From an uncultured Gammaproteobacteria bacterium (lineage in GTDB: Bacteria > Patescibacteriota > Microgenomatia > UBA10105 > UBA927): 64,000 nt of DNA. Location of the stretch: assembly GCA_964573695.1 (NCBI GenBank), contig CAZNKB010000001.1:132497-196496 (forward strand). Direction: 5' to 3'. A program made the position numbers and the translations under genes. Positions 5,745 through 59,627 of the stretch are shown here, piece by piece (the stretch's first letter is position 1; each line of letters starts with the position of its first letter). The notes below the pieces were generated by a model. It was given only the letters and a program-made list of their open reading frames with translations. It ran no database searches and had not been told where the DNA came from.

Positions 5745-5809
5745 AACTTCCCTATTATAGATCAGACGCATCTTGACCCGATAGTGCCAAGTACGGTATA
5801 CTTTCCCCC

Positions 5810-6100: not shown

Positions 6101-6661
6101 ATGTGTATGCCTGCCAAAGAAATACGCATTAATCTATTGGGATCCCAGGATCTTGGTCACACCCCGTGGGGCCGGCTGGTGGAATGGGCCACTACCTATG
6201 GCCGGTATATCATGATCACGACGGAAATAGTGGTGCTGCTCGCGTTTATTTCACGCTTTAGTCTTGACCGGAAAAATACCGACTTAACCGAAGAATTGGG
6301 TCAAAAACAGGCAATTATCGAAGCCAATCTGGACTTTGAGCGGGACATCAAGTCACTGCAGGCACATCTGACGACCGCAAAAGCATTGCTTGCCAACCAA
6401 GCAAAACCGGTCGAGATGGTAAACACCCTTGAATCACTCATACCGGCAGACGTGTATCTTTCATCGCTTGATATATCGCGTGACAAAATAAGTATTTCGG
6501 CAACGGCGGGTACGACCAGTGGTTTTGCACAATTTCTGTCTAACCTGCAGTCGGTACAGATGATTCAAAACGTGTTGCTCGGCGACATCCGACGGGAGCC
6601 GGCAACGGGCATAGAGTTTCAGCTAACTGCGGACATTGCGGGGGCTGCGAAGCCTAAATAA
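6101..6661 (+). CDS. Type IV pilus assembly protein PilN-like
   Basis: Short cytoplasmic N-terminus containing the INLL motif, a single TM helix, then a coiled-coil/periplasmic domain of PilN size (186 aa). Confidence 0.5.
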   Translation: MCMPAKEIRINLLGSQDLGHTPWGRLVEWATTYGRYIMITTEIVVLLAFISRFSLDRKNTDLTEELGQKQAIIEANLDFERDIKSLQAHLTTAKALLANQAKPVEMVNTLESLIPADVYLSSLDISRDKISISATAGTTSGFAQFLSNLQSVQMIQNVLLGDIRREPATGIEFQLTADIAGAAKPK

Positions 6662-6664
6662 CAT

Positions 6665-7315
6665 ATGATAAACCCGACCCAAAAAAGCACCGAAGGGCAA
6701 TTTCACCGATACTACCAAAAACTCTCGCCGGTTTTGAAAAAGCCGAAAATGCGGGCATCCACCACGGCGGTTTTTTCATTTCTCGCCATTTCTCTTTTTG
6801 CATGGTATGCCATACGGCCGACTGCGCAGACCATCATATTCCTACGACGTGAAATAGCGGACAAAACAGTGCTCAATGAACAAATGGAAAACAAAATAAC
6901 AGCATTAATCGAAGCACAGGCAACATATGAAACGATCAAAGACCGGCTTTCTGTCATCGAACAGGCTCTTCCGAATAATCCGGACGGCGTTATTCTTGCA
7001 CGTCAACTGAGGAATCTCGCCGTCGTTTCCGGCGCCTCCATTTCTGCAATTCAAATTCCCAGCTTACCGATATTGGGTCAGGAAGCTACCCCAGGAGCTA
7101 AACTCGCGCAACAAAAACCCATGGATCAATTTCCGGTAAGCCTTGTTATTTCTGGTTCATATGTTTCGCTCAAGCAATTTATGGATGGATTACTCACGCT
7201 CCGACGTATTACCGGCATCGATGCAATTACCATTAAACCGGCATTACGTCAGGGTCTTGCGGGAGATGCATTACAATTAACTATTCGATTACAATCGTAT
7301 TATCTGACGAAATAA
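6665..7315 (+). CDS. Type IV pilus assembly protein PilO-like
   Basis: 216 aa with an N-terminal TM, a coiled-coil segment and a C-terminal domain. Immediately follows the PilN-like gene with a 3-bp spacer. Confidence 0.4.
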   Translation: MINPTQKSTEGQFHRYYQKLSPVLKKPKMRASTTAVFSFLAISLFAWYAIRPTAQTIIFLRREIADKTVLNEQMENKITALIEAQATYETIKDRLSVIEQALPNNPDGVILARQLRNLAVVSGASISAIQIPSLPILGQEATPGAKLAQQKPMDQFPVSLVISGSYVSLKQFMDGLLTLRRITGIDAITIKPALRQGLAGDALQLTIRLQSYYLTK

Positions 7316-10669: not shown

Positions 10670-11698
10670 TTATTTGAGTGACGATTTAACAAAGGCATGT
10701 ATTGCCTCGAAACTTTCCACAGGCAGTAGGACATACCTACCATACCAGGAACTGGGAGGCGTGTATAATTTGTCTTCAAGCGATATCCGCTGTGTCTGTT
10801 CTTTCGGGGTATTCATAAACAACTTACCCACCGTAAGCACTTCGCCGATATTCATGTCCATATCAGTAGCTTCGTCAAAAGCGCCATAAAGCTTCTCTGC
10901 CTGCTTCGGATTAAGATATACATCTTTGGATAATAACTTTGACTTGAGCGCGAGCAATACTTCCTGTTGTCTCCGGCCCCGTGCAAAGTCACTTCCTTCT
11001 TCCCCTTCAGCGTGTCGGCTTCGCACATATTTGAGCGCTGTATCACCATTCATCGTTTGCATCCCGGCTTCAAAGTGCAACGGCTCGTATCGACACCGAA
11101 GAAGCGGGTCTCCGTTACAAGGATCGTTTTCTTTTCCGGGGATCGGAAATTCTGAATCCGTGAAGCTTTTGGGCACGTTAATCTCCACCCCACCAGCCAA
11201 ATCTATAACTTTACGGAATCCCGAAAAATCCAAAACAAGCGCATATTGAATCGGAAGGCCGACCATATCGGAAACTATAGCCTTAGCGAGCACTAACCCT
11301 CCTCCCTTTTTCTTTATTTCCCCGTAATGATAGGCGCTGTTTACCTTATCTTTGAGAGTATCTGACCAGACGTCGCGGGGAAGCGAAATCATGGATAAAG
11401 TACGATTCTTTTCATGGAATGACAAAACGAGAATAGTATCGGTCAAATCCGTTCCTTCATGATTTCCTCCGGGGATACCCAGAAGTAATATATTTACTCT
11501 CCCCTCCATAGGGTGAAGGTTGGCGCCGGAATCAAAGATCAGGCGGGCAAGGGTTGTCGGGGTTATACCGGTCGTTTGCATAAAACGCAACGAAAACAAC
11601 ACGGCTTTTGCTGCAATAAACAAAACGAATGCTGCTGCCAACAAAAGTATGACAATCGATATCTTCGTGACGTGTCCCCGACGGATTCGTGATTCCAT
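10670..11698 (-). CDS. LCP family (LytR-CpsA-Psr) cell-envelope polymer transferase
   Basis: N-terminal TM then NILLLGIPGGNHEGTDLTDTILVLSF...LPRDVW, the hallmark LCP-domain N-terminal strand/motif. 342 aa. Confidence 0.75.
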   Translation of the reverse strand: MESRIRRGHVTKISIVILLLAAAFVLFIAAKAVLFSLRFMQTTGITPTTLARLIFDSGANLHPMEGRVNILLLGIPGGNHEGTDLTDTILVLSFHEKNRTLSMISLPRDVWSDTLKDKVNSAYHYGEIKKKGGGLVLAKAIVSDMVGLPIQYALVLDFSGFRKVIDLAGGVEINVPKSFTDSEFPIPGKENDPCNGDPLLRCRYEPLHFEAGMQTMNGDTALKYVRSRHAEGEEGSDFARGRRQQEVLLALKSKLLSKDVYLNPKQAEKLYGAFDEATDMDMNIGEVLTVGKLFMNTPKEQTQRISLEDKLYTPPSSWYGRYVLLPVESFEAIHAFVKSSLK

Positions 11699-14236: not shown

Positions 14237-14471
14237 GCGGTCAAGCGGAACACGAAAAGAACCAGACTCCCGAAAACTACACTTATCGCCATAATCATTT
14301 CCACGGCCAGAAAAAATTTTGCGACCCCACGAACATGACCGAAAGAAAAAATGGGGAATATCAAACGGCTGTCGATCGGCAACCAATGCAATGGAGGCTC
14401 TGATCGAATCGGTCGTTTTTGCTTCATCGCACGATATTGTACCATACCCGCAAAAGCGCGATAATACATAT

Positions 14472-15479
14472 ATGCCGAAGGCCTCCCGAACAACCCAAAA
14501 ACCTCGCGAGCTCAACGAAAAAACCTGGAATGCACAGGCCGGCCATCCGCTGCAGTCATGGCAATGGGGTCGGTTTCGCGAGCACATGGGGATATCCCTT
14601 GTCCGACACAATGGCTGGCAACTCACATTTCATCGTATTCCCCATACGGGTTGGACCGTCGGCTATTTCCCAAAAGGGCCCAGGCCTACGCCCGCTATGC
14701 TCGAGCAGCTCAAAAAAATAGGCCGGGAACAAAAAGCCATATTTATCCAGTTGGAACCCGATGTCATCGCTCAGTCCCACCGTCCATTCTCCGGCATGCG
14801 CGATCTCGTACCATCTCATCATCCCCTGTTTACCAAATATACGTTTGTCTTCGATCTTACAAAATCCGAAGACGCTCTTCTGGCTGCTATGCATTCAAAG
14901 ACACGCTATAACCTTCGGATTGCACAAAAACACGGCGTGACGGTCCAGGAAGACAACTCAGACGAGGCTTTCGGAGAATATCTTCGCCTTTCACAAGAAA
15001 CTACCGGACGCCAGGGATTTTATGCACACGATGCCCATTATCACGAAGCGATGTGGTCAACTATGAAAAAAGCCGGTATTGCGCATCTGTTTACCGCGAA
15101 GTACCAGGAAAAGACGCTTGCCGCGTGGATTATTTTTTCCTGGAAAAAAACACTCTATTATCCCTATGGTGCATCGAGCAGGGATCATCGGGAGGTTATG
15201 GCGCCGACGCTCATGCTTTGGGAAATAGCGAAATGGGGCAAAGCCCACGGGTATCTGTCGTTTGATTTATGGGGAGCACTTGGCCCTTCGCCCAAGACAG
15301 GTGAACCGGATCCCCATGACCCGTGGTACGGATTTCATCGCTTTAAACAGGGATTCAATCCAACGCTCGTAGCGTATGCCGGATCGTTTGACCTTATACT
15401 CAGACCGTTCTTATACAAATTATATACGTGGGCAGATACCATACGCTGGATCCTCCTCAAAAAAAAGACTGACAAATAA
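14472..15479 (+). CDS. FemAB/MurM-family aminoacyl-tRNA-dependent peptidoglycan branch peptidyltransferase (paralog 1)
   Basis: Fem-type fold signature (QSWQWGRF..., paired GNAT-like halves). Start chosen at MPKAS (14472), preceded by a 235-bp noncoding stretch with a TTGTAC-N17-GATAAT promoter-like element. Confidence 0.55.
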   Translation: MPKASRTTQKPRELNEKTWNAQAGHPLQSWQWGRFREHMGISLVRHNGWQLTFHRIPHTGWTVGYFPKGPRPTPAMLEQLKKIGREQKAIFIQLEPDVIAQSHRPFSGMRDLVPSHHPLFTKYTFVFDLTKSEDALLAAMHSKTRYNLRIAQKHGVTVQEDNSDEAFGEYLRLSQETTGRQGFYAHDAHYHEAMWSTMKKAGIAHLFTAKYQEKTLAAWIIFSWKKTLYYPYGASSRDHREVMAPTLMLWEIAKWGKAHGYLSFDLWGALGPSPKTGEPDPHDPWYGFHRFKQGFNPTLVAYAGSFDLILRPFLYKLYTWADTIRWILLKKKTDK

Positions 15480-15484
15480 TTCAC

Positions 15485-16312
15485 ATGGAAATTCAACAGT
15501 CGGCGTTTTATGCATCGTATATCCGTTCGCTCGGGTGGATAGTGGAAAAAATTGACGGTTGTTATGTTTTTATCAAACCATTTCCTCTCATTGGCGGATT
15601 AGCAAAAATCCAACGCGTGACCCGTCTCCCGAAGATACGCGCACTGCTCCCAATACTTCGCACCTATCGGGTACGTACACTCGCAATCGAACCGGACAAC
15701 CGCGTCAAACAACAAACGTTTACGAGTTGGTGTCGTAGAGCGGGTCGCTACATCAAACTTAATCGGGATTCGTTTATACCCACAAAAACAATCCGCGTTA
15801 ACGTACGGAAAGAAGAACATGAATTATTTTCTCAACTGAGTGAGGCAAAACGCAGGGCAGTTCGCCGCGCGCAAAAAAACGGCGTTACGGTCTCGGTTTC
15901 AATGGACATAGATGCGCTCATTCGCCTCAAAAACCGTTCGGCCGGATTTTTAGGATTTATCACTACGGCCGGAGCCCGTAAGCTATGGTCCGCTCTACCC
16001 GACGGAAAAAAGGCAATCTTACTAGCACGGAACCGGGACAAACACATAGTCGGAGGAATCATGCTTATTTGTTGGAATCATATTGCCTATTATTGGATAG
16101 CCGGCGCGCTCCCTTCAGGCAAAAAACTCTTTGCACCGACGCTGCTTGTATGGGAAGCTCTCAAGGAATCCAAGCGTCTCGGGTGTATCTCACTCGATTT
16201 CGTCGGCGTATGGGACGAGCGGCACCCGGACAAAAATCATGAATGGAAAGGGTTTACCAAATTTAAGGAGGGCTTCGGCGGAGAAACGCTGTATTACCCT
16301 ATCGTTTTCTAA
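15485..16312 (+). CDS. FemAB/MurM-family peptidyltransferase (paralog 2)
   Basis: 275 aa. Follows paralog 1 after 5 bp. Similar Fem-type architecture with a C-terminal ...WKGFTKFKEGFGG motif. Confidence 0.55.
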   Translation: MEIQQSAFYASYIRSLGWIVEKIDGCYVFIKPFPLIGGLAKIQRVTRLPKIRALLPILRTYRVRTLAIEPDNRVKQQTFTSWCRRAGRYIKLNRDSFIPTKTIRVNVRKEEHELFSQLSEAKRRAVRRAQKNGVTVSVSMDIDALIRLKNRSAGFLGFITTAGARKLWSALPDGKKAILLARNRDKHIVGGIMLICWNHIAYYWIAGALPSGKKLFAPTLLVWEALKESKRLGCISLDFVGVWDERHPDKNHEWKGFTKFKEGFGGETLYYPIVF

Positions 16313-24285: not shown

Positions 24286-24316
24286 TTCGTCGCGTGGTAT
24301 AATTTAGCTTGATTCT

Positions 24317-25798
24317 ATGCGCCAAATATTTTTGCGTTACCCCAATAAAACGCAGCGGATTTTAGAAATTGCCATACCACTTACCTCCTGGTTCATTATT
24401 ACCATGCCGCTTTGGTTATCTTTCTGGCATCCGGCGCTTGTGGCTTATCTTATTATCACATTTGACGTGTATTGGTTTTATAAATCAGTTTCCCTGGTCA
24501 TTTTTGCGCTTCGGTCATTCGTCATGTTTACCGCACACACAGCGGTCAATTGGCTTGAGCAGGCAAAAAATCTCTCACACTTTCAGGAACTCTGGCATGT
24601 CGTGATCATACCCGAATTCCAGGAACCTATTCACATCCTCAGGCGTACTCTCGATAACCTATCAAAACAGGATTTTCCGAGGGAACGCATCATTATCGTC
24701 CTCGCCACGGAAACCAAAGACCCAAACAGCACCGAAACGGCAAAAATTCTCAAAAAGGAATATGCCGGTTTATTCGGTCATTTCCTGGTAACCAAACACA
24801 CGCTTACGACAGGGGAAACGGCCGGCAAATCATCCAATATGGCGTGGGCGGCCAAAAAAATTGCGGTGTTACTTTCTGAAAAACATATCCCCTTAGAATG
24901 GACGACCGTCACGTCATGCGACGCCGACGCCCTTCCCCACCCGAAATATTTTTCGGCGCTCGCATACCAATTCCTTAGCGATCCGCATCGCCACGATCAT
25001 TTTTACCAGGGAAGCATTATGTTCTATAACAACATTTGGCGTATCCCGCTTCCTAACCGGTTCTTAAACACGTTAAACAGCATGTGGAACCTCGCGTTTT
25101 TATCGCAGCAATCGCGGCTTATCAACTTTTCAACGTATTCGCTGTCATTTAAGACAGCCGCCTCTGTCGGATTTTGGGCCGTGGATGTAATCCCTGAGGA
25201 TTACCATATGTTTTTTACGGTGTATTTCTCCCGTGGAGAACGCGTATCCGTACAGCCAATTTTTTTGCCAATTTTGGTGGACGCCGCGGAAAGTCATGGG
25301 TTTTTCAACACGTTTATCAACCAATACGAACAATCCAAGCGTTGGGCATGGGGCGTATCGGATATCCCGTATGTTATCCGGGAGACGTTTATTCACACGG
25401 AAATCAAATTATCAGACCGAATACGAAGACTTGCATCTCTTCTCGAACATCATCTGCTTTGGCCGACAAATTGGTTTATCCTTACATTGGGCAGCACGGT
25501 ACCGCCCCTTATTAATCCAAGTTTTGCCCGTACCGTACTCGGACACAACCTCGCACAAATTTCCTCAGGCATTCTTACCCTGTCGACGATCTTCCTCATC
25601 ATCGTATTTGTTATAGACTGGCGTATCAAACCGCCCCCGCCAAAAGCCTACCCCAAGTGGAAGCTCCCCCTCCTTTATCTACAGTGGCTGACGCTGCCGA
25701 TTATTTCTTTCTTTCTCTCTGCGTTACCGGGACTTGATGCGCACACGAGGCTCATGCTTGGAAAGCGACTGGAATATCGCGTCACCGAAAAGATATAA
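24317..25798 (+). CDS. Processive family-2 glycosyltransferase (cellulose/chitin-synthase-like) with flanking TM helices
   Basis: N- and C-terminal TM bundles, catalytic region with D, CDAD (DxD) and QSKRW (Q-x-x-R-W) motifs typical of processive GT2 synthases. Confidence 0.7.
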   Translation: MRQIFLRYPNKTQRILEIAIPLTSWFIITMPLWLSFWHPALVAYLIITFDVYWFYKSVSLVIFALRSFVMFTAHTAVNWLEQAKNLSHFQELWHVVIIPEFQEPIHILRRTLDNLSKQDFPRERIIIVLATETKDPNSTETAKILKKEYAGLFGHFLVTKHTLTTGETAGKSSNMAWAAKKIAVLLSEKHIPLEWTTVTSCDADALPHPKYFSALAYQFLSDPHRHDHFYQGSIMFYNNIWRIPLPNRFLNTLNSMWNLAFLSQQSRLINFSTYSLSFKTAASVGFWAVDVIPEDYHMFFTVYFSRGERVSVQPIFLPILVDAAESHGFFNTFINQYEQSKRWAWGVSDIPYVIRETFIHTEIKLSDRIRRLASLLEHHLLWPTNWFILTLGSTVPPLINPSFARTVLGHNLAQISSGILTLSTIFLIIVFVIDWRIKPPPPKAYPKWKLPLLYLQWLTLPIISFFLSALPGLDAHTRLMLGKRLEYRVTEKI

Positions 25799-27129
25799 TG
25801 GAAACAGTCGGTATGTTAAACGCTCTGCTTACCCATACACCGTTGCTTTATTTGGTCCAGAGTCTCTGGCGGGATGAGGCGTTTTCTATCCTAGCCGCAC
25901 AGCGGCCTATATCTTTTATTGTTTCGCGCTTGGGATTCGAACCCCCCGTCTACTATCTCATGCTGCATTTTTGGATGAAGGTATTCGGCTCAGGAGAAAT
26001 AGCAGCGCGCAGCTTGTCGTTATTGGGATTTCTCATAGCGACCGTCCTCATGATCGAATGGGGACATACGCTCTACAAAAAACACTGGCTATCATGGTAT
26101 TTACCGCTATTTTTTTTCCTCAATCCCATGCTTCTTTACTACGCGTTTGAAGTGCGCACGTATGGGTGGTATATCTGCTTTGCCACCGCCACACTCATCG
26201 CTTACTCTTCGCGACAATGGAAGTGGTTTATCATTTCGGCGGTACTCGGATTTTATACTCACGTATATATACTTCCGTTTGTCGGTGTACTGGGACTTCA
26301 TTGGCTCTGGACCAAAAAACCGACACTCAAGGGACTTGTCAGCTTTATAAAAAAAGACAGCGGCATCAAGTCATTTATCACCGTCGGTGTACTTATGTTG
26401 CCATGGCTCATACGGATTGGCTTTGAAGCCTCCCGTATGAAAACATCCTGGTACTACCCGGTAGATCTGCAGCTTATCCGTTCAGCACTGGGAAATATGT
26501 TTATCGGGTACGAAGGAACGCCCTGGTACGGCTGGACCTATACATCTTACCTTTCCGTCGCTCTGATGCTTTGCGCGGGACTGGCACTCACCCATACATT
26601 ACACAGGAAACAGACTGATCTATTTATCATATTCGGTGCCGTTCCGCTTGCGCTAGTTATTGCCATATCGTTTATAAAACCGCTGTTTGTGAACCGATAT
26701 CTCATCCCCACCACCATAGCCGAAGTCCTCATAGTGGTTATGGCAATCGCGGCGATCAAAAATACGGTAATCCAAAAAATTGCGGCAGTTGCGGCGTTAT
26801 GTGGGGTTCTTTGGGTAAATTGGTGGTATCCGCCGCTTCACGCCAAGTTGGCGATACGGGATTCGTTTGAGCAGATAAACGTCATTTCAAAACCGGACGA
26901 TATATTTCTCGCGTCGGATCCTATTATCTACCTGGAAACGTTATACTACGCGAAGGATAGATCACGTGTGTATTTATATAATCCGATGAACAACGTATTC
27001 CCCTGGTATATCGGTGACGCACTCATTACTCCTTCGAGAATGCTTCGTGACTATCCGCTCTATCCTAACCGAGCAATACTCGTGTATCCCGATACGACGT
27101 ATGAAATCGTATATAGGATGCCGTTATGA
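25798..27129 (+). CDS. GT-C fold glycosyltransferase (ArnT/PMT/GT39-83-like polytopic membrane protein)
   Basis: About 11 predicted TM helices with a loop motif near the first helix (WRDEAF...), typical of lipid-phosphate-sugar dependent GT-C enzymes. ATG overlaps the upstream stop (ATAATGG). Confidence 0.55.
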   Translation: METVGMLNALLTHTPLLYLVQSLWRDEAFSILAAQRPISFIVSRLGFEPPVYYLMLHFWMKVFGSGEIAARSLSLLGFLIATVLMIEWGHTLYKKHWLSWYLPLFFFLNPMLLYYAFEVRTYGWYICFATATLIAYSSRQWKWFIISAVLGFYTHVYILPFVGVLGLHWLWTKKPTLKGLVSFIKKDSGIKSFITVGVLMLPWLIRIGFEASRMKTSWYYPVDLQLIRSALGNMFIGYEGTPWYGWTYTSYLSVALMLCAGLALTHTLHRKQTDLFIIFGAVPLALVIAISFIKPLFVNRYLIPTTIAEVLIVVMAIAAIKNTVIQKIAAVAALCGVLWVNWWYPPLHAKLAIRDSFEQINVISKPDDIFLASDPIIYLETLYYAKDRSRVYLYNPMNNVFPWYIGDALITPSRMLRDYPLYPNRAILVYPDTTYEIVYRMPL

Positions 27130-27515
27130 AATTTACTCCTCCCGTGTCCTTACCGGAGAATCTGCTCCAGGGAATCGGCGCGACCCGATCCACATGGGAA
27201 TATAAATGGGCAACTGCTTTTGTATGGATCCAATTCCTCTTGGGAAGCGTCACACTTGCATGGTATTGGAGGGTTCTTCCTCCGCAAGTGCCGCTTTGGT
27301 ACAGTAAACCCTGGGGCGACGAACGGTTAGCCTCGCCGTGGTTTTTGTTACTTCCGTTTATATCTTCCGGAGTTATTTACATTATTAATCTTGCAGCAGT
27401 CGCACGTTTTGCCGGCAATCACCCGATGTTTGTACGGGTGCTGCTGCTGACTTCTATGCTTATATCATTGCTGAGCGGTTATATCGTCGTTCGTATTGTT
27501 ACCCTGGTAAGCTAA
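27126..27515 (+). CDS. Small 4-TM membrane protein (GtrA-like?) within the glycan cluster
   Basis: 129-aa ORF with four hydrophobic segments, overlapping stops/starts with both neighbours. Confidence 0.35.
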   Translation: MKFTPPVSLPENLLQGIGATRSTWEYKWATAFVWIQFLLGSVTLAWYWRVLPPQVPLWYSKPWGDERLASPWFLLLPFISSGVIYIINLAAVARFAGNHPMFVRVLLLTSMLISLLSGYIVVRIVTLVS

Positions 27516-28600
27516 TGAGCCCGTTTCTTCCCATATTACTCGCAACTTTGTTCATAACTCTTGGGCTAACCCCGCTCGTCATTATTTTCGCAAAACGATT
27601 CGGATTGGTTGATGATCCGAAGCACCGGTATCACCCGGCTCACACCCACAAGGGGGTTATCCCGCGTGCCGGCGGACTCGCGTTATTTTTGGGGATTGCC
27701 TCAATGATAGTCATTTCCCTTCCGATGACTTCGCAGATCGTCGGCATAATCCTCGGAAGCTTTATCCTAACTGCCGTAGGACTTATGGATGACAAACGCG
27801 ACGTCAGTCCATACATACGTCTGACGATCAACATTCTTGTCGCACTCATCGTCGTGAGCACGGGTAGCTCTATTCCCTTTATCACCAACCCGCTTACCGG
27901 TGGAGTATTACCGCTTTCCATATGGAACTGGACCATAACGATCGGGTCGTTTCATATAGCATTCGGGCTACCGCAAATACTCGCGGTTCTTTGGATCGTA
28001 TGGACCATGAACATCATAGGCTGGAGCGCGGGTGTAGACGGGCAAATGCCCGGATATGTCGCCATATCTGCGTTTATCCTGGGACTCCTTTCCCTTCGGT
28101 ACAGCATACTCGACGCAAACCAAATTTGGGTAACGGTATTGGCGTTTATCATAACCGGCGCGTTTTTGGGATTTTTACCATGGAATTTTTATCCCCAAAA
28201 AATTATGCCCGGATACGGCGGCAAAACCCTGGCCGGATATTTTTTGGCGCTCCTGGGTATTTTGTCGTTTGCCAAACTGGGGACCGCACTACTGGTCTTG
28301 GGAATCCCCATGCTTGACGCGGTAGCAACCCTTGTCCGACGGATAGGCATGAGAAAATCGCCGGTACTTGCCGACCGCGGCCACCTCCACCATAAACTTC
28401 TCGATATAGGATGGAGCAAACCCCGCATCGCCTTGTTTTACTGGGGAGTCTCGGCTATACTGGGGCTGGTCTCACTCACGGTCACAAGTACGCTAAAAGT
28501 ATTTGCATTTGTCGCTGTGGCTGTTGCGTTGACCATGTTTCTCGTATGGGTCAGCTTCTTTACGCAATTCTCAAAGCAGCGAGACCACGACAGTGGCTAA
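27515..28600 (+). CDS. Polyprenyl-phosphate HexNAc-1-phosphate transferase, GT4/MraY-WecA family
   Basis: Polytopic membrane protein with HTHKGVIPRAGGL (MraY/WecA cytoplasmic loop motif) and conserved Asp-containing loops. Confidence 0.7.
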   Translation: MSPFLPILLATLFITLGLTPLVIIFAKRFGLVDDPKHRYHPAHTHKGVIPRAGGLALFLGIASMIVISLPMTSQIVGIILGSFILTAVGLMDDKRDVSPYIRLTINILVALIVVSTGSSIPFITNPLTGGVLPLSIWNWTITIGSFHIAFGLPQILAVLWIVWTMNIIGWSAGVDGQMPGYVAISAFILGLLSLRYSILDANQIWVTVLAFIITGAFLGFLPWNFYPQKIMPGYGGKTLAGYFLALLGILSFAKLGTALLVLGIPMLDAVATLVRRIGMRKSPVLADRGHLHHKLLDIGWSKPRIALFYWGVSAILGLVSLTVTSTLKVFAFVAVAVALTMFLVWVSFFTQFSKQRDHDSG

Positions 28601-29484
28601 AAAACCTTGCCCTGTTCACCACGATATTCTTCACCGGCAAACTTTTCTATATGCCGCTTCTTAGTGCGACAATATTGGGCTTTATCGCATTTTGCTTTCT
28701 TTCGTCCTCCAACTATATCTTAAATGACGTGCTGGATGCCCCCGCAGACAGGCGACACCCGTTTAAAAAATTTCGGCCGGTGGCAAGCGGTAAACTACCG
28801 ATAAAAACGGCGCTCCTCGTATCGCTTCTACTGTTGGTTTCCGGATTGGGACTTGCGCAAATGGTCGGACAGTCGTTTTTCTTCTTTTCTCTCGTTTTCA
28901 TTATCCTGCAATATTCTTATTCGGTCGTACTCAAGCACATATCGGTCATCGACATCATCGCAATTACAGCGGGTTATGTGCTTCGGGTATACGCCGGTGA
29001 AGCGGCAAGTGGATATCATATTTCTATTTGGTTGGCTCTCGCAGCACTTTCCCTCGCGCTATTTTTGGCAATCGGCAAACGCCGAGCAGAACTTACGCTT
29101 ATTCAGGGATCAGGGGATGCATCTCCAAAAGACACGCGGGCAGCGTTGTCACACTATTCAGAAAAATTATTGGATGCGTATACATCCATGTTTGCCACGT
29201 CAACGTTTATTTCCTATACGTATTTTACGTTTCTTGAGCGCCCGATCACGGAAGGGATTATATTCCGTAACTACAGTGATTTCGTTATCGGAATACCCGA
29301 CCGCAAATGGATGATGATGACTATCCCTTTTGTACTCTACGGCATCATGCGGTATATGCAGCTTATCTATCATGGAAAAGGAGAATCACCTGAACAAGTG
29401 CTTACAACGGATTTACCCCTCCTGAGTACCGTTATCTTGTGGACGGGAGCTACGCTATTTGTGATTTACGGCATCGGGGGCTAG
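28546..29484 (+). CDS. UbiA-family prenyltransferase, decaprenyl-phosphate phosphoribosyltransferase (DPPR synthase)-like
   Basis: RPRQWLKNL...FCFLSSSNYILNDVLDAPADRRH (NDxxDxxxD motif) and a second Asp-rich motif downstream, ~8 TM helices. Start chosen at the internal Met (28546), overlapping the previous gene by ~55 nt. Confidence 0.7.
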   Translation: MGQLLYAILKAARPRQWLKNLALFTTIFFTGKLFYMPLLSATILGFIAFCFLSSSNYILNDVLDAPADRRHPFKKFRPVASGKLPIKTALLVSLLLLVSGLGLAQMVGQSFFFFSLVFIILQYSYSVVLKHISVIDIIAITAGYVLRVYAGEAASGYHISIWLALAALSLALFLAIGKRRAELTLIQGSGDASPKDTRAALSHYSEKLLDAYTSMFATSTFISYTYFTFLERPITEGIIFRNYSDFVIGIPDRKWMMMTIPFVLYGIMRYMQLIYHGKGESPEQVLTTDLPLLSTVILWTGATLFVIYGIGG

Positions 29485-29510: not shown

Positions 29511-30038
29511 CTAGGAATTCGCGTCTGTTTGCTCGCTTACTACCCGGACAAGCTTCGAATGATCCCAAACGCTGTAATTGTACATAACACCCGAATGAGT
29601 ACGTAGCACGTGGGGCAAATAATACTTCACCGGCGGAAATATCGTATCCATAGCGGCAAGCGCGTCCATATGTATCCATGTAGCAGATCCTTCGTGGTTG
29701 GAAATAACGCCTGCGGGCTTAGTTGTTAACACGGCGAGAAACCCAAAGACGACAAACAGCTCGTTCCGATCTACATGATGATGCATCGCCACAAATTTAA
29801 GCTGCACATTATCGGGAGATAATATAATACCCACCTCTTCGGATACTTCGCGGATCGCAGCCGCCAAGGGGGTTTCTCCTTCTTCTATGTGTCCTCCGGG
29901 AAGAGCAAGCCAACCGGGAAAAACTTTTTTTGTTTCGCTACGCTTAAACATGAGGACGTCGTGTTTGTGCGTTATGCACACATCCACTGTATATACCGGT
30001 ATCGCGACTTCCTGAAGATGTTTGGGCGGCACTGGCAT
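29511..30038 (-). CDS. NUDIX hydrolase
   Basis: Nudix box GGHIEEGETPLAAAIREVSEEVG. Confidence 0.7.
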   Translation of the reverse strand: MPVPPKHLQEVAIPVYTVDVCITHKHDVLMFKRSETKKVFPGWLALPGGHIEEGETPLAAAIREVSEEVGIILSPDNVQLKFVAMHHHVDRNELFVVFGFLAVLTTKPAGVISNHEGSATWIHMDALAAMDTIFPPVKYYLPHVLRTHSGVMYNYSVWDHSKLVRVVSEQTDANS

Positions 30039-30081
30039 GACACCAGTATACCAAAGCGAAGCGCTCCGCAATTACGAGGTA

Positions 30082-30963
30082 TTATTCCGTCTTGTCGGCG
30101 TATTGCGCGGATATCCAGCCTTTGTTGGTTCCGTCGTGAGAAATCTGATACCAGCCGGTCTGCTGGGTGAACACGTGATATTTTTCTCCGGGATTGACTC
30201 TTCCGGCTTCGGTTGCTGATGTCGAGGGTTCCATACGAACGCGCAGGAATCCCGTCGGCGTATCTTTTATCGTTACATACGGTTTCTGCGGTGTTGCCGA
30301 TGACGTGGCGGTATTTGTGCTCTTTAACGTCGGTGTCGGAGTAGTCGACGTGAGCGCGGCAGGCGTTGCTTCAGGAACCGGAATACCTCCGGCAGACAAC
30401 GCTAATTTCATACTGGCAATAAGCTTGTATCCACTCGTTAATTTGACCTTCATTGTCCGCGTGAGGAACCCCGGACTCGTAACCGTCAGTGAATGATCGC
30501 CTGCCACAACATCGGATATGGTAAGCGGAGTAATCCCCTTTGTTACGTCGTCCAGAACGACCGATGCCCCGTCGGGATTCGTGATAACCGAAAGTTCCGG
30601 CTTGCCTGCGACACTTTTTTCAAGCCATAGCACGTCTACTGCCGAGGATAACTCGGATTCGGATAACACAGCGTTGATATACGTAAGCAGGTTGGTTCCG
30701 ACCGATATTTTTGCCTGCCACGGGGCCACTTCGCCGGTAGAGGATTCCGCAACCAATCGGATCGTATATTCCCCTGCTGTTACTTTCTCACGAAGAGGGG
30801 TTCTTCCTATGTGTTTGTTGTCCAAAAAAACACTCACCGTCGGGGTAGCATCTACACGAAGTTCTCCCTCTTTGGGCGCTCGGGAACCCAACAATCTCAC
30901 CGCACCGAAAATAATGAGAATAACAGCAAGGAAGATAACAAGGAAGATTGCCTTACGCTTCAT
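30082..30963 (-). CDS. Membrane-anchored protein with PEGA-like beta domains and C-terminal bacterial SH3 (SH3b) domain
   Basis: N-terminal TM. Repeated ~70-aa beta modules (VSVFLDNKHIGRTPL...YTIRLV). C-terminus GFLRVRMEPSTSATEAGRVNPGEKYHV...GWYQIS...GWIS resembles SH3b. Confidence 0.5.
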   Translation of the reverse strand: MKRKAIFLVIFLAVILIIFGAVRLLGSRAPKEGELRVDATPTVSVFLDNKHIGRTPLREKVTAGEYTIRLVAESSTGEVAPWQAKISVGTNLLTYINAVLSESELSSAVDVLWLEKSVAGKPELSVITNPDGASVVLDDVTKGITPLTISDVVAGDHSLTVTSPGFLTRTMKVKLTSGYKLIASMKLALSAGGIPVPEATPAALTSTTPTPTLKSTNTATSSATPQKPYVTIKDTPTGFLRVRMEPSTSATEAGRVNPGEKYHVFTQQTGWYQISHDGTNKGWISAQYADKTE

Positions 30964-31103
30964 AAATTGAGTTCGATCATACCACATTGAAGCGAGTTTG
31001 GGCAATGTCAGCCCTGCCTACGAATTTGACTTTGGGCCGATTTTACGCTACAATAGCGGGTATTGAACCACTCTTTCGGGAGTGGTTTTTTGTTTCATTT
31101 TTT

Positions 31104-38416: not shown

Positions 38417-39844
38417 ATGTATCATAACATGACTCATATTCCTCCGGTAAGGCCAGTACCCAAAAAATCCTCCAGAACCACGCTTTGGGCAATCGGCATA
38501 GGACTTATACTACTTGTCATCTCCACTATTGCCGGGCTTTCCGCGTATGACGCATATTACGAAGGCAAAATTTATCCCAATATCACCATAGATAACATAG
38601 ATTTTGGGGGTAAAACGCCGCGTGAGGTGGAGGCATACTGGAAAAATCAAAACATCCCTTTTGCATCGTCCGTATTCGAATTCAAATTTGAAAATGAAAC
38701 CGCGACCGTCTCCGGTGCGGATTTGGATCTCGGATATGATGCGACGTTGTCCGCCACACAAGCGTATGCCATGGGAAGAAGCGGACACTGGTTAGGGGAC
38801 CTTACCACAAAATTTTTCCGGGGGGCCGTCAACATCACGCCGTATTTCCGTTGGAAAACCGATCTTGTGCGTACGACGCTCGACGATATTTCAGCGCGCA
38901 TCGACATCCCTGTACAGGAAGCGCTGTTCCAGTTTAATAACGGACGGGTCACCGCATTCCGCGCATCCCGGGACGGTCGGGCAGTTCACAAAGAAGAAGC
39001 ACTTGCGCGTTTCGATGAAGCTGTTAAGGCGCTGCCGCATGCACCTACGTATCACATCGTCATCAACCTCCCCGTCTATACTGCTCATCCTGTAGCGACG
39101 ACAGAAAAAGCAAATTCATTTGGCATCAAAGAACTCATTGGCCGCGGGTATTCCGAATTCCAGGGATCAATTCCCGGCAGAATTCATAATGTCGCGCTAG
39201 CTGCAGCACGCATCAACGGCGTTCTGATCCCACCCGGAGAAACGTTTTCTTTTAACGACGCAGTCGGTGATATTTCTGCCGCCACAGGATACCAATCCGC
39301 TTACATCATCAAGGAAGGAAGAACCGTCCTTGGGGACGGCGGCGGCGTATGCCAGGTAAGCTCAACATTGTTCCGAGCGGCATTGAATGCCGGACTTTCG
39401 ATACCGGAACGCCACGCCCACGCTTACCGAGTCCATTATTATGAAGAGGGAGGATTTAAACCGGGACTTGATGCGACCGTATTCTCACCGAGTGTCGATC
39501 TGAAAATCAAAAACGACACGCCTTCACACATCCTCATCCAAACCAAAACCGACACCAAAAATCTGACCCTCACATTTGAGCTCTATGGGACGCATGACGG
39601 ACGCAGCAGTGAGATTACTAACCATATTGTATGGGGAGAAAGCCCGCCGCCGCCCGCGCTATATCAGGACGATCCCACGCTCAAGGCTGGGGTGGTCAAA
39701 CAAGTCGACTGGTCGGCATGGGGAGCCAAAGCATCTTTTGCGTACAGGGTTACCCGCGGTAATGAAGTACTTGAGGATACCACGTTTGTTTCCAATTTTC
39801 GTCCGTGGCAGGCCGTATATTTACGCGGGACAGCCACACCATAA
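38417..39844 (+). CDS. VanW-family protein
   Basis: N-terminal TM, then the conserved VanW core (GETFSFNDAVGDIS..GY..A..I..G....GGGVCQVSSTLFRAALNAGL). Confidence 0.7.
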   Translation: MYHNMTHIPPVRPVPKKSSRTTLWAIGIGLILLVISTIAGLSAYDAYYEGKIYPNITIDNIDFGGKTPREVEAYWKNQNIPFASSVFEFKFENETATVSGADLDLGYDATLSATQAYAMGRSGHWLGDLTTKFFRGAVNITPYFRWKTDLVRTTLDDISARIDIPVQEALFQFNNGRVTAFRASRDGRAVHKEEALARFDEAVKALPHAPTYHIVINLPVYTAHPVATTEKANSFGIKELIGRGYSEFQGSIPGRIHNVALAAARINGVLIPPGETFSFNDAVGDISAATGYQSAYIIKEGRTVLGDGGGVCQVSSTLFRAALNAGLSIPERHAHAYRVHYYEEGGFKPGLDATVFSPSVDLKIKNDTPSHILIQTKTDTKNLTLTFELYGTHDGRSSEITNHIVWGESPPPPALYQDDPTLKAGVVKQVDWSAWGAKASFAYRVTRGNEVLEDTTFVSNFRPWQAVYLRGTATP

Positions 39845-43847: not shown

Positions 43848-46196
43848 TTATAATCTCGCCCGCTCCTGAATTTCCGCCTCAATAAGTTCGCGGGCTTGAC
43901 CGTATTTCAATCGGGAGAGTTGAATAATCGCTTTGGCGACTTCCTTGTTTTGCTCAGCGGAAACAACCTTCATGTCTTTCGACAGATCGATACTAAACGG
44001 TTTGACTGGTTCATTATGTACGATTGTTTTGATATACGCATTGTATTTATCAATATTGATGAGATCAATTTCATTAAACGTCGGCTGATATTCATGCTGA
44101 AGATAATTCGCGTCCGTTACTCCAACACGGAATGTGATAAGCGTACCGACGTTTCCGAAAACGGCGTTTTTCACCTCTTCTTCCATTTGTCCGATAAATT
44201 GGTTGGCGACGGTAAGACTAAGTCGATATTTCCGCGCTTCGGAAAGGATTTGCGCGAAATCCGGAGTGGCGAAATTTTGGAACTCGTCGACGTAGAGATA
44301 AAAATCGCGCCGCTTATCTTCGGATACGTCCTGTCTGCTCATCGCGGCAATCAGTATCCTGGGAACCAGAATCAACCCCAAAAAATTACTATTCTCTTCT
44401 CCTAATTTACCCTTGGAAAGATTAACCAGTAATATTTTCCCTTCGTCCATAACTTTCCTGAAATTAAAACTCGACTGCGATTGCCCGATAATATTACGCA
44501 TGAGCTTATTCGTGACGAAGCGTCCGAATTTGGAAACAATGTAATCAAGAACCTCTGATTTATGGAAATCCGCCGTCTGGGCGATTTGATCCGTCCAATA
44601 ACGACGGATGATCGGATCCTGTACTTTGGGCAATAATTCCTGGACAAAGTTACTGTCGGTAAGGATGCGCACTACCTCGATAAACGTGCTTCCCGGTTCG
44701 CTCATTACCGTCAACATGGCGTTTCTGACTGCGTGTTCGAACCGCGGCCCGATAATGCCCGTTTTCTGCGGATCATACAACTTATACATAAGTCCCACGA
44801 TAGATGTCACGACAAAATGTTTCTGCTCCTCCGTTTCCGCCTCCAACATATTGAGTCCCATAGGCCGTTCGGTATCCGAAGGATCAAAATAAATCACATC
44901 CTCCGCACGATCGGCCGGAATACGAGCAAGTATTCCGTCGATCAAATCCCCGTGCGGATCAATGACGGCAAGCCCTTTGCCGGCCTTGATATCCTGAATG
45001 ACGAGCTCTTCAAGGAGTTGCGATTTACCCGTACCCGTTTTTCCAATGACGTACATATGACGACGGCGATCCTCATCACCTATATATATCGGACGATCCA
45101 TACCCCTATATCTGGATATACCGATGAACTGACCGCTGGAAGCTATCTGCATCGGTGCCGGCGCGCGCTTGGCATTCAGCCAAAAAATATGGGGTGTTTC
45201 GACTGATTTATTCGGGAGATGATAAATGGTAGCTAACTCATCGCTGTTGAGCACCCCGTATTGTTTGAAAAATGGCAGATTCACCATGGGAAAATACCGG
45301 TAAATAAAATCGATCATAAAAAACTTCCTCATGGGATGTTTTACTTTCGAAAAATGATTATGATCCGAGGTAAACTGATGAAACGATGTAATGAGGTTTT
45401 CCAGATGTGCATCGGCGGCCTCTTTGGTTGTCGAGCTGACGACTAGCCGAATGACAGTGTTGAATCCAGGTTTCGAGACTTTCTGTTCAATGGATTCAAG
45501 CGTTTTCGGGTCGACCTTGAAGCTTGCTTTCTCGGGATTTGCTTCGTTTTTCTTCGTTTTGGATATGTATGATCTCCCAAGCCCCGCCCATTTGCTATCC
45601 GCCGGCTGAATAAGGATCTGAATGGCAGCCCCCTCGCCTTCGGACATTTTTGCAAGAACCGATGTCAGTGACGAAAGCGGATCTATCGGAAGATCGCGAT
45701 ATATCCGGATCGGGAGGTAATCGGAATTTTTGGGAGTAAGGGCAGCAAACGAGACTTTACCGGTTTCACTGAATATATTGTACTCATCGACGATTCTCAG
45801 ATCCGCACCGGGATATGAACCGTGTATCTGTTTTTCAATCAAATCGACAAAATGTTTGGGCGCTGCGATATAAAACCGTATATCTTCACGCTTAGCCACT
45901 ATCTCAAACGATATGTGCTCCTGTGGCTTGAGAAATGACCAAAATCCGCCATGATGAAGCGAGTGTAAACTGGCGAACATTTGTTCTGCTGCATCGATTT
46001 TTATCTCGTTGTCCCGCGGCGTCGCCACCTGAATGAGGGTATATTCCATGGAGTGTTTTTCCCGGTCACGATATTTCCACAAAATAAACAACGCGTATCC
46101 CAAAGCGGCAAACCCGATAAGACAAAACGTCAGGATTATAAGTGATATCCCCAATACTTCCAGCTGATAGGTGATGTCGGCAAATTCTAACGGCAT
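43848..46196 (-). CDS. VirB4/VirD4 (TraG/TraD)-type FtsK-HerA superfamily P-loop ATPase with N-terminal TM helix and ~330-aa uncharacterised extracytoplasmic domain
   Basis: Start taken at MPLEFAD (46194-46196). One TM (LGISLIILTFCLIGFAALGYALFILW). Walker A YVIGKTGTGKSQLLEEL, Walker B/DEAH-like LYVDEFQNF, and a C-terminal KYRLSLTVANQ segment typical of T4SS coupling/DNA-transfer ATPases. Confidence 0.6.
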   Translation of the reverse strand: MPLEFADITYQLEVLGISLIILTFCLIGFAALGYALFILWKYRDREKHSMEYTLIQVATPRDNEIKIDAAEQMFASLHSLHHGGFWSFLKPQEHISFEIVAKREDIRFYIAAPKHFVDLIEKQIHGSYPGADLRIVDEYNIFSETGKVSFAALTPKNSDYLPIRIYRDLPIDPLSSLTSVLAKMSEGEGAAIQILIQPADSKWAGLGRSYISKTKKNEANPEKASFKVDPKTLESIEQKVSKPGFNTVIRLVVSSTTKEAADAHLENLITSFHQFTSDHNHFSKVKHPMRKFFMIDFIYRYFPMVNLPFFKQYGVLNSDELATIYHLPNKSVETPHIFWLNAKRAPAPMQIASSGQFIGISRYRGMDRPIYIGDEDRRRHMYVIGKTGTGKSQLLEELVIQDIKAGKGLAVIDPHGDLIDGILARIPADRAEDVIYFDPSDTERPMGLNMLEAETEEQKHFVVTSIVGLMYKLYDPQKTGIIGPRFEHAVRNAMLTVMSEPGSTFIEVVRILTDSNFVQELLPKVQDPIIRRYWTDQIAQTADFHKSEVLDYIVSKFGRFVTNKLMRNIIGQSQSSFNFRKVMDEGKILLVNLSKGKLGEENSNFLGLILVPRILIAAMSRQDVSEDKRRDFYLYVDEFQNFATPDFAQILSEARKYRLSLTVANQFIGQMEEEVKNAVFGNVGTLITFRVGVTDANYLQHEYQPTFNEIDLINIDKYNAYIKTIVHNEPVKPFSIDLSKDMKVVSAEQNKEVAKAIIQLSRLKYGQARELIEAEIQERARL

Positions 46197-46200
46197 AACA

Positions 46201-46647
46201 TTATGATACTTTCGTTCGCACGGTTTTTCCGGAAATAGATGTGATCGTAAGGTGTACTTGTTGCAGCTGTCTCTTGCACCACTCGGCAAGCCAGCGCCAT
46301 GACGAAAGAATACTCTGATGAAGTCCTTTGGCGATTTGGTCGTCGGTAAGTGGAAGTGCTATGGTCGGCGGAGGGGCAGCTATCGCGACGGAGTCTCCCA
46401 AAGGCGCTACTCCCATACGCTCAACGATTTTGGGCAACACGACCGAATCAGAGCGCATTCTCACGCCGGCTTTGGCAACCTCGGCCGGTAGCTCGGTTTC
46501 TTTACCAAATTCCGTAATAACAGGCGATTCGACCGGTGCGGGTGAAAGCGGGGCTACTTCTTTTGCCATGCTTCCTGTTCTCGTCTGCGGAGACGGCGGC
46601 GCAGGAGTCGATGATGATGTGCTAGGCAGGGTGTCCATATAATTCAT
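46201..46647 (-). CDS. Hypothetical Pro/Ser-rich 148-aa protein, translationally coupled to the downstream ATPase
   Basis: Start chosen at MNYMD (46645-46647). Its stop abuts the ATG of the ATPase gene. Low-complexity PAPPSP/PAPVESP N-terminus, conserved-looking C-terminus (WRWLAEWCKRQL). Confidence 0.35.
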   Translation of the reverse strand: MNYMDTLPSTSSSTPAPPSPQTRTGSMAKEVAPLSPAPVESPVITEFGKETELPAEVAKAGVRMRSDSVVLPKIVERMGVAPLGDSVAIAAPPPTIALPLTDDQIAKGLHQSILSSWRWLAEWCKRQLQQVHLTITSISGKTVRTKVS

Positions 46648-53833: not shown

Positions 53834-54448
53834 TCAGGTGCTTTTTGGCTGCCCCGTCAGCTTATAATACCCAAGTGCTTGCAGCACCAATTCGAGGGTC
53901 TGACTCGGACCATGTGAGTAGGTGTTAATAACCAGGTCATAATATTTCGGATCCCAAAAATCATCAACTCCATAAAGCCTCTTCCATTTTCCGATATTGG
54001 CATCTTCACGCTGGCGCAGATGTTCCTTGGCATCCTCTACCGTTGCGTTATCCCGGTTCACAATCCGGTCGATGCGAAGCGAGTCGTCACACATAAGCAA
54101 CACCTTAAGCACATGTGCATACCCTCGGGCGTTCCACCCCGCGATCCAACTTTCGACTGCCATATGAATGTCCGGGCTGGATATTTTTTTCCGGAGTGCT
54201 TGGTCTATCTGATAATCGACATCGTCACCGTAATCAGTGGCCAAATGATGTTTAGGATCTTTCGGATCGTGCTTCCCCTGTTCTATGGAAAATTTTCTTG
54301 ACCAGTCGCCGCCGGAAAAAAAGTCCCAGCCGAACGGCTCCAAACAGGGACGGAGATTCTTAAGAAGCGTGCTTCTGCCTGCTCCTGGTCGCCCGGAAAT
54401 GGCGACGCTTGCATACTTCAAATCGGATAGCACTTTACTCTCACCCAT
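53834..54448 (-). CDS. P-loop nucleoside/nucleotide kinase (cytidylate-kinase-like)
   Basis: Walker A ISGRPGAGRSTL near the N-terminus and a size of ~205 aa consistent with the (d)NMP kinase family. Confidence 0.5.
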   Translation of the reverse strand: MGESKVLSDLKYASVAISGRPGAGRSTLLKNLRPCLEPFGWDFFSGGDWSRKFSIEQGKHDPKDPKHHLATDYGDDVDYQIDQALRKKISSPDIHMAVESWIAGWNARGYAHVLKVLLMCDDSLRIDRIVNRDNATVEDAKEHLRQREDANIGKWKRLYGVDDFWDPKYYDLVINTYSHGPSQTLELVLQALGYYKLTGQPKST

Positions 54449-54555
54449 ACAGCTATTATAGATACACACTATTACGAGTCAAGGGAGACACTTACGTTCG
54501 TTTCGCAAAAAACGCTGCAATTGACAAAAGCTGTCCCTTACGCACATACTATCGT

Positions 54556-59588: not shown

Positions 59589-59627
59589 ACATGGTGCCTC
59601 CTTACTACATTATTATATAATGTCCCC

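Follow-up and report, generated by a model that had tools for sequence, protein, structure and literature searches.

The closest described relatives of the system considered here are of two kinds. In three-component pentofuranose systems, a polyprenyl-phosphate 5-phosphoribosyltransferase (PPPRS) is combined with a flippase and a glycosyltransferase (GT) of the GT-C fold; in Citrobacter youngae O1/O2 these are encoded by ORF15 (PPPRS-PRP), ORF14 (MATE flippase), and ORF12 (GT-C/GT136), respectively (Kelly et al., PNAS 2024, PMC11127046). Among such systems, the lack of an epimerase goes with ribofuranose and the presence of DprE1/E2 with arabinofuranose (PMC11127046). The other relative is the mycobacterial decaprenyl-phospho-arabinose/arabinogalactan pathway, with Rv3806c, Rv3807c, DprE1/DprE2, WecA, GlfT2, Aft/Emb, and Lcp1. 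A gene cluster recalling both lies at positions 24317–29484 (+) of the 64-kb stretch of contig CAZNKB010000001.1 analysed here, which will be called the window. It encodes, in order, a synthase-like GT2, a GT-C-type protein, a small membrane protein, an atypical GT4 of the PNPT family, and a UbiA homolog of the phosphoribosyltransferase type. The reading preferred here is that this operon makes or decorates an extracytoplasmic envelope glycan of Candidatus Gottesmanbacteria, using a polyprenyl-P-pentofuranose derived from phosphoribosyl pyrophosphate (PRPP), and we regard it as about equally likely to be right or wrong. The assignments of the enzymes to families are secure; the wiring between them we infer.

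A sequence-only reading of this DNA had described five consecutive co-directional genes with overlapping stop and start codons, and both the open reading frame (ORF) listing and the junction sequences confirm this (Table 1). The five ORFs are 493, 443, 129, 361, and 357 amino acids (aa) long. Read from the sequence, the junctions are TAATG at 25798, ATGA at 27126–27129, and TAATG at 27515. For the last gene, the ATG at 28546 is the most likely start, 55 nt inside the GT4 gene; the gene calls in relatives show the same 312-aa product and the same overlap.

Its sequence places the UbiA homolog among the polyprenyl-phosphate 5-phosphoribosyltransferases (PPPRS/DPPRS clade, Rv3806c type), as had been proposed, and not in the MenA/UbiA quinone clades. 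It matches Pfam PF01040 (2.4e-19) and scores 209.4 bits against NCBIfam NF008978 (decaprenyl-phosphate phosphoribosyltransferase), a narrow margin over the cutoff of 207; the score against NF008977 is 206 bits, under its cutoff of 234, and that against the PRK08238 family NF006088 is 169 bits. Among prenyltransferase families outside the DPPRS and PRK08238 groups, the highest score is just 50 bits (NF009523); heme O synthase scores 31.9, UbiA 24.5, and MqnP 16. The top match in the PDB is Rv3806c itself (8j8j, E = 7.5e-34). The NDxxDxxxD motif is present as N60-D61-V-L-D64-A-P-A-D68, equivalent to N73-D74-x-x-D77-x-x-x-D81 of Rv3806c, with N60, D61, D64, and D68 each at least 98% conserved among 67 orthologs.

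The correspondence with Rv3806c extends to the rest of the site. Residue roles (PRPP, Mg, and lipid phosphate) were taken from the Rv3806c structure paper, according to which the phosphoribose-binding sites are not conserved in UbiA-superfamily prenyltransferases (PMC10994848). In the alignment, the pyrophosphate-binding lysine/arginine cluster R22, K87, R90, and K143, together with Y138, is matched by R13, K74, R77, K130, and Y125, and the contacts to ribose 5-phosphate and polyprenyl phosphate (K28, Y70, Y157, and K191) by K19, Y57, Y144, and K178; N73, D77, and D81 fall on N60, D64, and D68, and the ribose contact Q135 on Q122. All of these except Q122 are at least 98% conserved in the 67 orthologs; Q122 is present in the window protein and 70–90% conserved in the orthologs. 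The alignment at Lys208 of Rv3806c is ambiguous. The protein, at 312 aa, has no additional domain. An aromatic prenyltransferase of the MenA/UbiA/heme O synthase type, with no use for PRPP, would share both the PF01040 match and the NDxxDxxxD motif. This explanation is effectively refuted, because the profile scores (209 bits for NF008978 against at most 50 for prenyltransferase families outside the DPPRS and PRK08238 groups) and the conserved ribose 5-phosphate contacts K19, Y57, and Y144 set the protein apart from ordinary prenyltransferases.

A search for partners of the DprE1/DprE2 type, together with a phosphatase, had been proposed as a check on the decaprenyl-phospho-arabinose comparison, and none turned up locally. 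The M. tuberculosis DprE1 and DprE2 sequences, both of which matched PDB entries over their full length, were used as tblastn queries and gave nothing below E = 0.6 in the local sequence covered, i.e., the window and 84 related loci (1.55 Mb). Among essentially all ORFs of the 64-kb window, Pfam likewise found no FAD-linked oxidase (FAD_binding_4) and no short-chain dehydrogenase/reductase (adh_short). With no linked epimerase, ribofuranose is likelier than arabinofuranose, and the donor sugar is probably the former.

The arabinofuranose route can still be framed by placing DprE1/DprE2-like enzymes elsewhere in the genome; these would epimerise the UbiA product once it had been dephosphorylated, the GT-C would add D-arabinofuranose, and the outcome would be an arabinogalactan-like polymer, primed by the GT4 and attached by a LytR-CpsA-Psr (LCP) protein. 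Rv3806c is the closest solved relative of the UbiA homolog, the combination of GT4, GT2, and GT-C recalls WecA, GlfT, and Aft/Emb, and an LCP ligase gene is found in the window (10670–11698, –); a possible UDP-galactopyranose mutase encoded beside the locus in L028 would fit as well. However, besides the lack of DprE1 and DprE2 homologs in the window and the 84 loci, Pfam finds no PAP2 phosphatase in the window, and in the non-mycobacterial candidate systems that have been described the epimerase genes sit with the PPPRS gene (PMC11127046). The GT2 is moreover of the membrane synthase type rather than GlfT2-like, and the GT4 is atypical, as detailed below. Overall, an arabinofuranose route seems unlikely here.

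For the first two genes, alignment profile searches of the PDB gave nothing significant, so fold comparison was used for both. The first had been described as a synthase-like GT2 with a QxxRW motif, which holds on the evidence of invariant motifs and fold matches. The window protein narrowly misses the Pfam GT2 cutoffs, and PF13632 is found in its homologs. The motifs D135, D202-A-D204, E294-D295, and Q339-S-K-R342-W343 are invariant in 28 sequences of 67–86% identity, and the GT-A domain lies between N-terminal and C-terminal transmembrane helices. In the AlphaFold model (pLDDT 74), residues 387–420 and 467–493 are below 50. The top Foldseek match is PcManGT (6yv7, 3.6e-10), followed by the Chlorella virus hyaluronan synthase over its full length (7sp7, 8.7e-10 over 506 columns) and BcsA (5ej1, 2.5e-8). 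From motifs and model together, we read the protein as membrane-embedded, hyaluronan/cellulose-synthase-like, and putatively processive.

The second gene had been called a GT-C transferase, and a confident model with ArnT-led fold matches bears this out. The window protein has no Pfam or NCBIfam match; of 29 orthologs, seven match PF13231 (PMT_2; best E = 1.9e-6) and one matches GtrII. The AlphaFold model (pLDDT 85.7, pTM 0.88) has ArnT as its top Foldseek match (5ezm, E = 3.3e-5, probability 1.0, TM 0.59), with further matches to ALG12, ALG9, PglB, OST, and Pmt, and the protein as modelled is of the ArnT/PMT_2-like GT-C fold. All 29 sequences compared have W24-R25-D26-E27 directly behind the first transmembrane helix, and the GT-C-like protein at a distant locus (L086) has an analogous WYGDEA. 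This segment, predicted to be extracytoplasmic, resembles the acidic catalytic motif of GT-C enzymes. In the founding member of GT136, a family that like this protein is closest to ArnT, the acidic residues are D31 and E34 (PMC11127046).

A PPPRS and a GT-C enzyme also occur together in pilin glycosylation, as in the addition of D-arabinofuranose by P. aeruginosa TfpW (PMC11127046). On that precedent, the GT-C protein could transfer a pentofuranose from a polyprenyl-P donor to protein, either a type IV pilin or the PEGA/SH3 protein encoded nearby. Some of the GT-C orthologs match PMT_2, a protein mannosyltransferase family, although ArnT-type lipid and glycan transferases also fall in this family and the fold is closest to that of ArnT. 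Even distant loci keep the PEGA/SH3 gene as a neighbor, and the pilus-assembly genes pilN and pilO are found in the window (6101–7315, +), but no pilin gene is adjacent. Protein O-glycosylation would also give no role to the synthase-like GT2, whose gene and that of the UbiA homolog are the best conserved in the cluster, and we consider this reading quite unlikely.

The fourth protein had been taken for a priming GT4 of the WecA/MraY type. As a canonical member of either group it does not stand. It matches Pfam PF00953 (Glycos_transf_4; 4e-22, 79.3 bits, cutoff 27) but is below both equivalog cutoffs, at 95 bits for TIGR02380 wecA (cutoff 326) and 46.9 for TIGR00445 mraY (cutoff 192). Its profile aligns end to end with MraY structures, in a ten-helix layout, and it keeps D92-D93 and H290-L-H292-H293, with D92, D93, H290, H292, and H293 invariant in 24 sequences. 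Two other motifs are changed. P232-G233-Y234, invariant in the same set and at least 98% conserved in 71 sequences, replaces (M/L)-G-D, and Tyr234 falls opposite the FMGD Asp in three MraY structures. We take this Asp to be the Mg-binding one, D265 in A. aeolicus MraY and D252 in DPAGT1. In addition, N166-I-I-G-W-S-A172-G-V-D175-G replaces NxxNxxDGxDG, so that the first Asp becomes Ala172 and the second Asn becomes Gly, while the second Asp (D175) is 70–90% conserved.

Searching the whole library with the GT4 brought up 311 representative clusters below 1e-30. The closest share W-S-x-G-V-D-G and G-(Y/F)-G, mostly with Y or F at position 234 and with a few keeping D, while the distant ones are mostly canonical, with D or E at this position in most. 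To judge from these alignments, the protein looks like a member of a distinct PNPT subfamily with a changed active site. No UbiA neighbor was seen for two homologs that depart in other ways, P0299, with IDGTDG but Thr at the position of FMGD, and P0279, in which neither motif is typical.

The small protein encoded just upstream of the GT4 is estimated to cross the membrane with three helices and has a conserved loop, LPPxVPLWYSxPWGxE/QLAxP. The window protein has no Pfam or NCBIfam match, and three of nine orthologs weakly match DUF1648 (best E = 0.0014). Its motif recurs in the N-terminal 130–145 aa of most of 23 inspected GT4 homologs of 471–523 aa from other lineages (P0250, P0253, P0257, and others), and blastp connects the window protein to the fused GT4 of locus L085. 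Because the two genes are fused in relatives, the small protein is read from sequence as a partner module of the GT4, with a weak likeness to DUF1648. A GtrA/SMR-type flippase was considered and rejected: there is no such Pfam match, there are three helices and not four, and the relatives have it fused to the GT4. Distant GT4 homologs at two loci without a UbiA neighbor (L092, 2395–2838, and one other) are still preceded by a small unannotated gene of 123–147 aa, and in the L092 translation the loop motif can be made out in degenerate form. PNPT proteins may thus be paired with a small partner more widely than with UbiA.

To see how far the arrangement extends, genomes were scanned with one genome per species. 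A GT2 relative was found in 255, and the loci taken for comparison were the best 80 of these (L005–L084), almost all from Gottesmanbacteria or other metagenome-assembled genomes (MAGs) of the Microgenomates group. Of the 70 species-level genomes with enough flanking (downstream) sequence, 64 keep all five genes in this order, so the arrangement is not due to chance; in 59 of these 64 loci GT4 and UbiA also overlap, by about 52 nt. Median identities to the window are 69% for UbiA, 68% for GT2, 63% for the adjacent methionyl-tRNA synthetase (MetRS), 62% for GT4, 50% for GT-C, and 40% for the small protein. GT2 and UbiA are thus at least as conserved as MetRS and seem to be under strong purifying selection.

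The same core can be followed into distant relatives with GT4 identities of 37–44%. A UbiA homolog is found 3' of the GT4 gene in all four with sequence there, immediately so in three and with one small reverse-strand ORF between them in L085. The small module precedes the GT4 or is fused to it, and a GT2 homolog lies upstream in all three loci with enough upstream sequence. The fifth component differs: L086 encodes a protein resembling GT-C, and L085 and L088 encode one of the Wzy_C type. The final extracytoplasmic transferase appears to be exchangeable among relatives.

Put together, these assignments allow the following scheme. The UbiA-type enzyme would form polyprenyl-P-ribofuranose-5-P from PRPP and polyprenyl phosphate, and a phosphatase would remove the 5-phosphate, leaving a donor that is probably polyprenyl-P-ribofuranose rather than the arabinofuranose form. 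After flipping, the GT-C enzyme would pass the pentofuranose to an acceptor outside the membrane, of which the most economical candidate is a polymer made and exported by the synthase-like GT2. The PNPT-like protein and its DUF1648-like partner, translationally coupled to the phosphoribosyltransferase, might prime a polyprenyl-diphosphate-linked anchor by a modified mechanism, or might handle polyprenyl-P-ribose-5-P.

Several observations weigh against this scheme. Within the cluster and the window no phosphatase, flippase, or epimerase is identifiable, and by Pfam the 64-kb window has neither a PAP2 nor a HAD phosphatase. The GT4 lacks the Mg-binding Asp, which makes its activity uncertain. 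The fold matches of the GT2 to the synthases have TM-scores of only ~0.45 with high root-mean-square deviation, and its C-terminal helices are weakly modelled. Finally, some genomes have only parts of the set. L074 and L082 have GT2, GT-C, and the small gene followed by hrcA-grpE-dnaK, with neither GT4 nor UbiA, and L078 has GT2, GT4, and UbiA without GT-C and the small gene. In L085 (11962–13269) and L088 (4584–6392), a Wzy_C gene (O-antigen-ligase-like, with or without TPR) is found 3' of UbiA and there is no GT-C; it adjoins UbiA in L088 and is two genes away in L085, in both cases along with a fused small-GT4 gene. The cluster is also less complete than the self-contained pathway for which it had been taken, in that it includes no identifiable phosphatase, flippase, or ligase. 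MurJ is encoded 20 kb away (4092–5771, –), and the only small membrane protein of the cluster is the DUF1648-like one, which is not GtrA, SMR, or MATE.

These partial loci bear most directly on how the two halves of the operon are related. GT-C and UbiA are not always found together, so the donor of GT-C could differ from the UbiA product. The earlier proposal that the GT-C enzyme uses the lipid-linked product of UbiA is therefore only partly upheld: the two share an operon in 64 of 70 genomes but are separable in L074, L082, L078, L085, and L088. The tightest pairs are GT4 (with the small protein)–UbiA and GT2–GT-C, and a link of GT-C to the UbiA product is plausible without being obligatory.

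Taken further, this would mean two separable modules lying side by side, with GT2, GT-C, and the small protein using a donor not derived from PRPP, and the small protein/GT4 and UbiA making another lipid-linked product for a GT-C or Wzy_C-type ligase here or elsewhere. L074 and L082, which keep GT2, GT-C (PMT_2), and the small gene without GT4 or UbiA, would then have one module; L078, with GT2-GT4-UbiA and no GT-C, and L085 and L088, with GT2, fused small-GT4, UbiA, and Wzy_C(+TPR) and again no GT-C, fit the same division, as do the tightest physical couplings, the GT4/UbiA overlap and the GT2/GT-C junction. On the other hand, 64 of 70 genomes have all five genes as a single overlapping unit, the small protein bridges the two halves by going with GT-C in certain genomes and being fused to GT4 elsewhere, and genes missing from the exceptional genomes may be elsewhere in them. 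We consider two modules a serious possibility, though a rather doubtful one.

A more radical proposal gives the PNPT the central place. The core would be the small module, the Asp-less PNPT, PPPRS, and GT2, with a new lipid-carrier chemistry in which polyprenyl-P-ribose-5-phosphate would be more than a monosaccharide donor: the PNPT, having lost the residue for binding the Mg-pyrophosphate of nucleotide sugars, would turn it into a ribose-phosphate primer or anchor, the GT2 would polymerise on this anchor, and a GT-C or Wzy_C-type ligase would move the product en bloc to the wall or a surface protein. It is speculative, and we think it improbable. The pentofuranose scheme set out above remains the one preferred.

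The operon is preceded by metG and tatD and followed, on the opposite strand, by genes for a NUDIX hydrolase and then the PEGA/SH3 protein, all by Pfam. Just upstream of GT2, TGGTATAAT is a possible operon promoter, recognised by eye in the sequence; it was not reported by the promoter consensus scan, as there is no –35 match. The NUDIX gene (29511–30071, –) was rejected as a pathway member, since beyond the window it is confined to the nearest relatives (L005, L009, L010, and L011), and is probably unrelated to the operon. The PEGA/SH3 gene is much more constant, located 3' of UbiA in 67 of the 80 Gottesmanbacteria loci and also in the distant L085, L086, and L087. Its product is an uncertain member of the system, perhaps accepting the glycan or acting as its wall-binding partner.

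Relatives often have additional genes between tatD and the operon, here judged by eye. Many have a 231-aa protein resembling a soluble GT2 (L016, 9268–9969; L019, 9268–9963; L022, 9259–9954; and about 25 others), which the window lacks. GT-B-like glycosyltransferase genes are found in this position in L012 (7862–9025), L078 (8766–9968), and L081 (8740–9936). The presence of extra glycosyltransferase genes beside the operon fits a glycan locus. Insertions between tatD and GT2 also include hydrolase-like proteins, and in L028 (7862–9238, –) a 458-aa flavoprotein, presumably similar in its N-terminal FAD-binding motif to UDP-galactopyranose mutase of the eukaryotic type. An epimerase or phosphatase was sought among these insertions, but they were read by eye as other proteins, and tblastn found no DprE1/E2-like sequence there.

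Elsewhere in the window are other genes related to the envelope. Besides those for MurJ and the LCP ligase mentioned above, they are located at 14319–16312 (+), 38417–39844 (+), and 59496–61868 (+), and the classes represented in the window include two FemAB-family genes, a VanW-like protein, and a class A penicillin-binding protein. They are consistent with a peptidoglycan wall able to carry a secondary polymer. The window also encodes an ATPase resembling type IV secretion coupling proteins (43848–46289, –) and a type I phosphoribosyltransferase (54409–55134, +), by which PRPP is a metabolite of this organism. Homologs of the first two genes are from records labelled "Patescibacteria group" or "Candidatus Gottesmanbacteria", and many TPA_asm MAG records with a syntenic locus of the Gottesmanbacteria type (L007, L008, L014, L017, and others) are titled "uncultured Gammaproteobacteria bacterium". 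These titles look like a placeholder or mislabel.

Table 1. Positions in the window of the five operon genes, the promoter candidate, and the convergent PEGA/SH3 gene.
Feature	Position	Strand	Length	Remarks
TGGTATAAT	24293..24301	+		extended –10-like element, 16 nt 5' of the GT2 start codon; read directly from sequence; possible promoter
GT2	24317..25798	+	493 aa	
GT-C	25798..27129	+	443 aa	
Small membrane protein	27126..27515	+	129 aa	
PNPT/GT4	27515..28600	+	361 aa	
UbiA homolog	28546..29484	+	312 aa from ATG 28546	ORF from 28411, 357 aa
PEGA + SH3_3 protein	30082..31005	–		surface or cell-wall-binding; convergent; PEGA 9.2e-22, SH3_3 9.8e-13

The Candidate Phyla Radiation (CPR)/Patescibacteria are nearly all uncultured, with poorly characterised surfaces, and the operon is a concrete, conserved entry point to them. 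That this is a lineage with little-characterised wall glycopolymers, as the sequence-only reading had remarked, agrees with the literature: no paper was found on this cluster in the CPR, nor on CPR/Patescibacteria envelope glycans. The conservation of GT2 and UbiA in Gottesmanbacteria, at least equal to that of MetRS, implies a core function. The PRPP-derived route to lipid-linked pentofuranose is extended to a deep uncultured lineage, and the results point to a large subfamily of PNPT proteins that have the catalytic-site Asp replaced and a small protein as their dedicated partner. Should the predictions for the enzymes hold, surface glycosylation dependent on polyprenyl-P-ribofuranose would be common to the whole lineage and might serve as a marker or target in enrichment and labelling.

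The GT2 and the PNPT can also be compared with known enzymes one by one. The GT2 has the D, DxD, ED, and QxxRW motifs of class I hyaluronan synthase (HAS), BcsA, chitin synthase, and PcManGT, and like them a GT-A domain flanked by transmembrane helices; its size (493 aa) and full-length fold alignment are close to those of the Chlorella virus HAS (~500 aa). However, sequence similarity to them is undetectable in a profile search of the PDB, the TM-scores are only ~0.45, the channel-forming helices are weakly modelled, and neither HAS nor BcsA is known to be coupled to a GT-C and a PPPRS. The PNPT shares PF00953, the DD and HxHH motifs, and the ten-helix layout with WecA, TagO, MraY, and DPAGT1, but has Tyr (Phe in relatives) for the Asp of (V/I)F(M/L)GD and Ala for the first Asp of NxxNxxDGxDG. 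It also differs in having an obligatory small DUF1648-like partner, often fused to it, and in the overlap of its gene with a phosphoribosyltransferase gene.

At the level of whole systems, the mycobacterial decaprenyl-phospho-arabinose/arabinogalactan pathway is matched in the Rv3806c-type enzyme, with its mapped residues kept, in the combination of GT2 and GT-C with a PNPT-family protein, and in an LCP ligase gene 13 kb away. It differs in that no DprE1, DprE2, or PAP2 phosphatase was found locally in the present case, in the GT2, which is a HAS/BcsA-like membrane protein here and of the soluble GlfT2 type there, in the lack of the Mg-binding Asp in the PNPT, and in the GT-C, which at 443 aa is ArnT-like and has no carbohydrate-binding domains of the Emb type. 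With the three-component pentofuranose systems, the cluster shares a UbiA-fold PPPRS with NDxxDxxxD and RxxE, whose gene lies together with that of an ArnT-like GT-C. Here, however, the PPPRS has no fused HAD phosphoribose-phosphatase and the cluster has no MATE flippase, while a synthase-like GT2, the atypical PNPT, and the DUF1648-like protein are added; and what is a serotype-variable O-antigen accessory locus there is a core syntenic operon in this CPR lineage. The cluster is thus a variant related to the known pentofuranose/arabinogalactan-type systems, with which it shares the pairing of a PPPRS and a GT-C.

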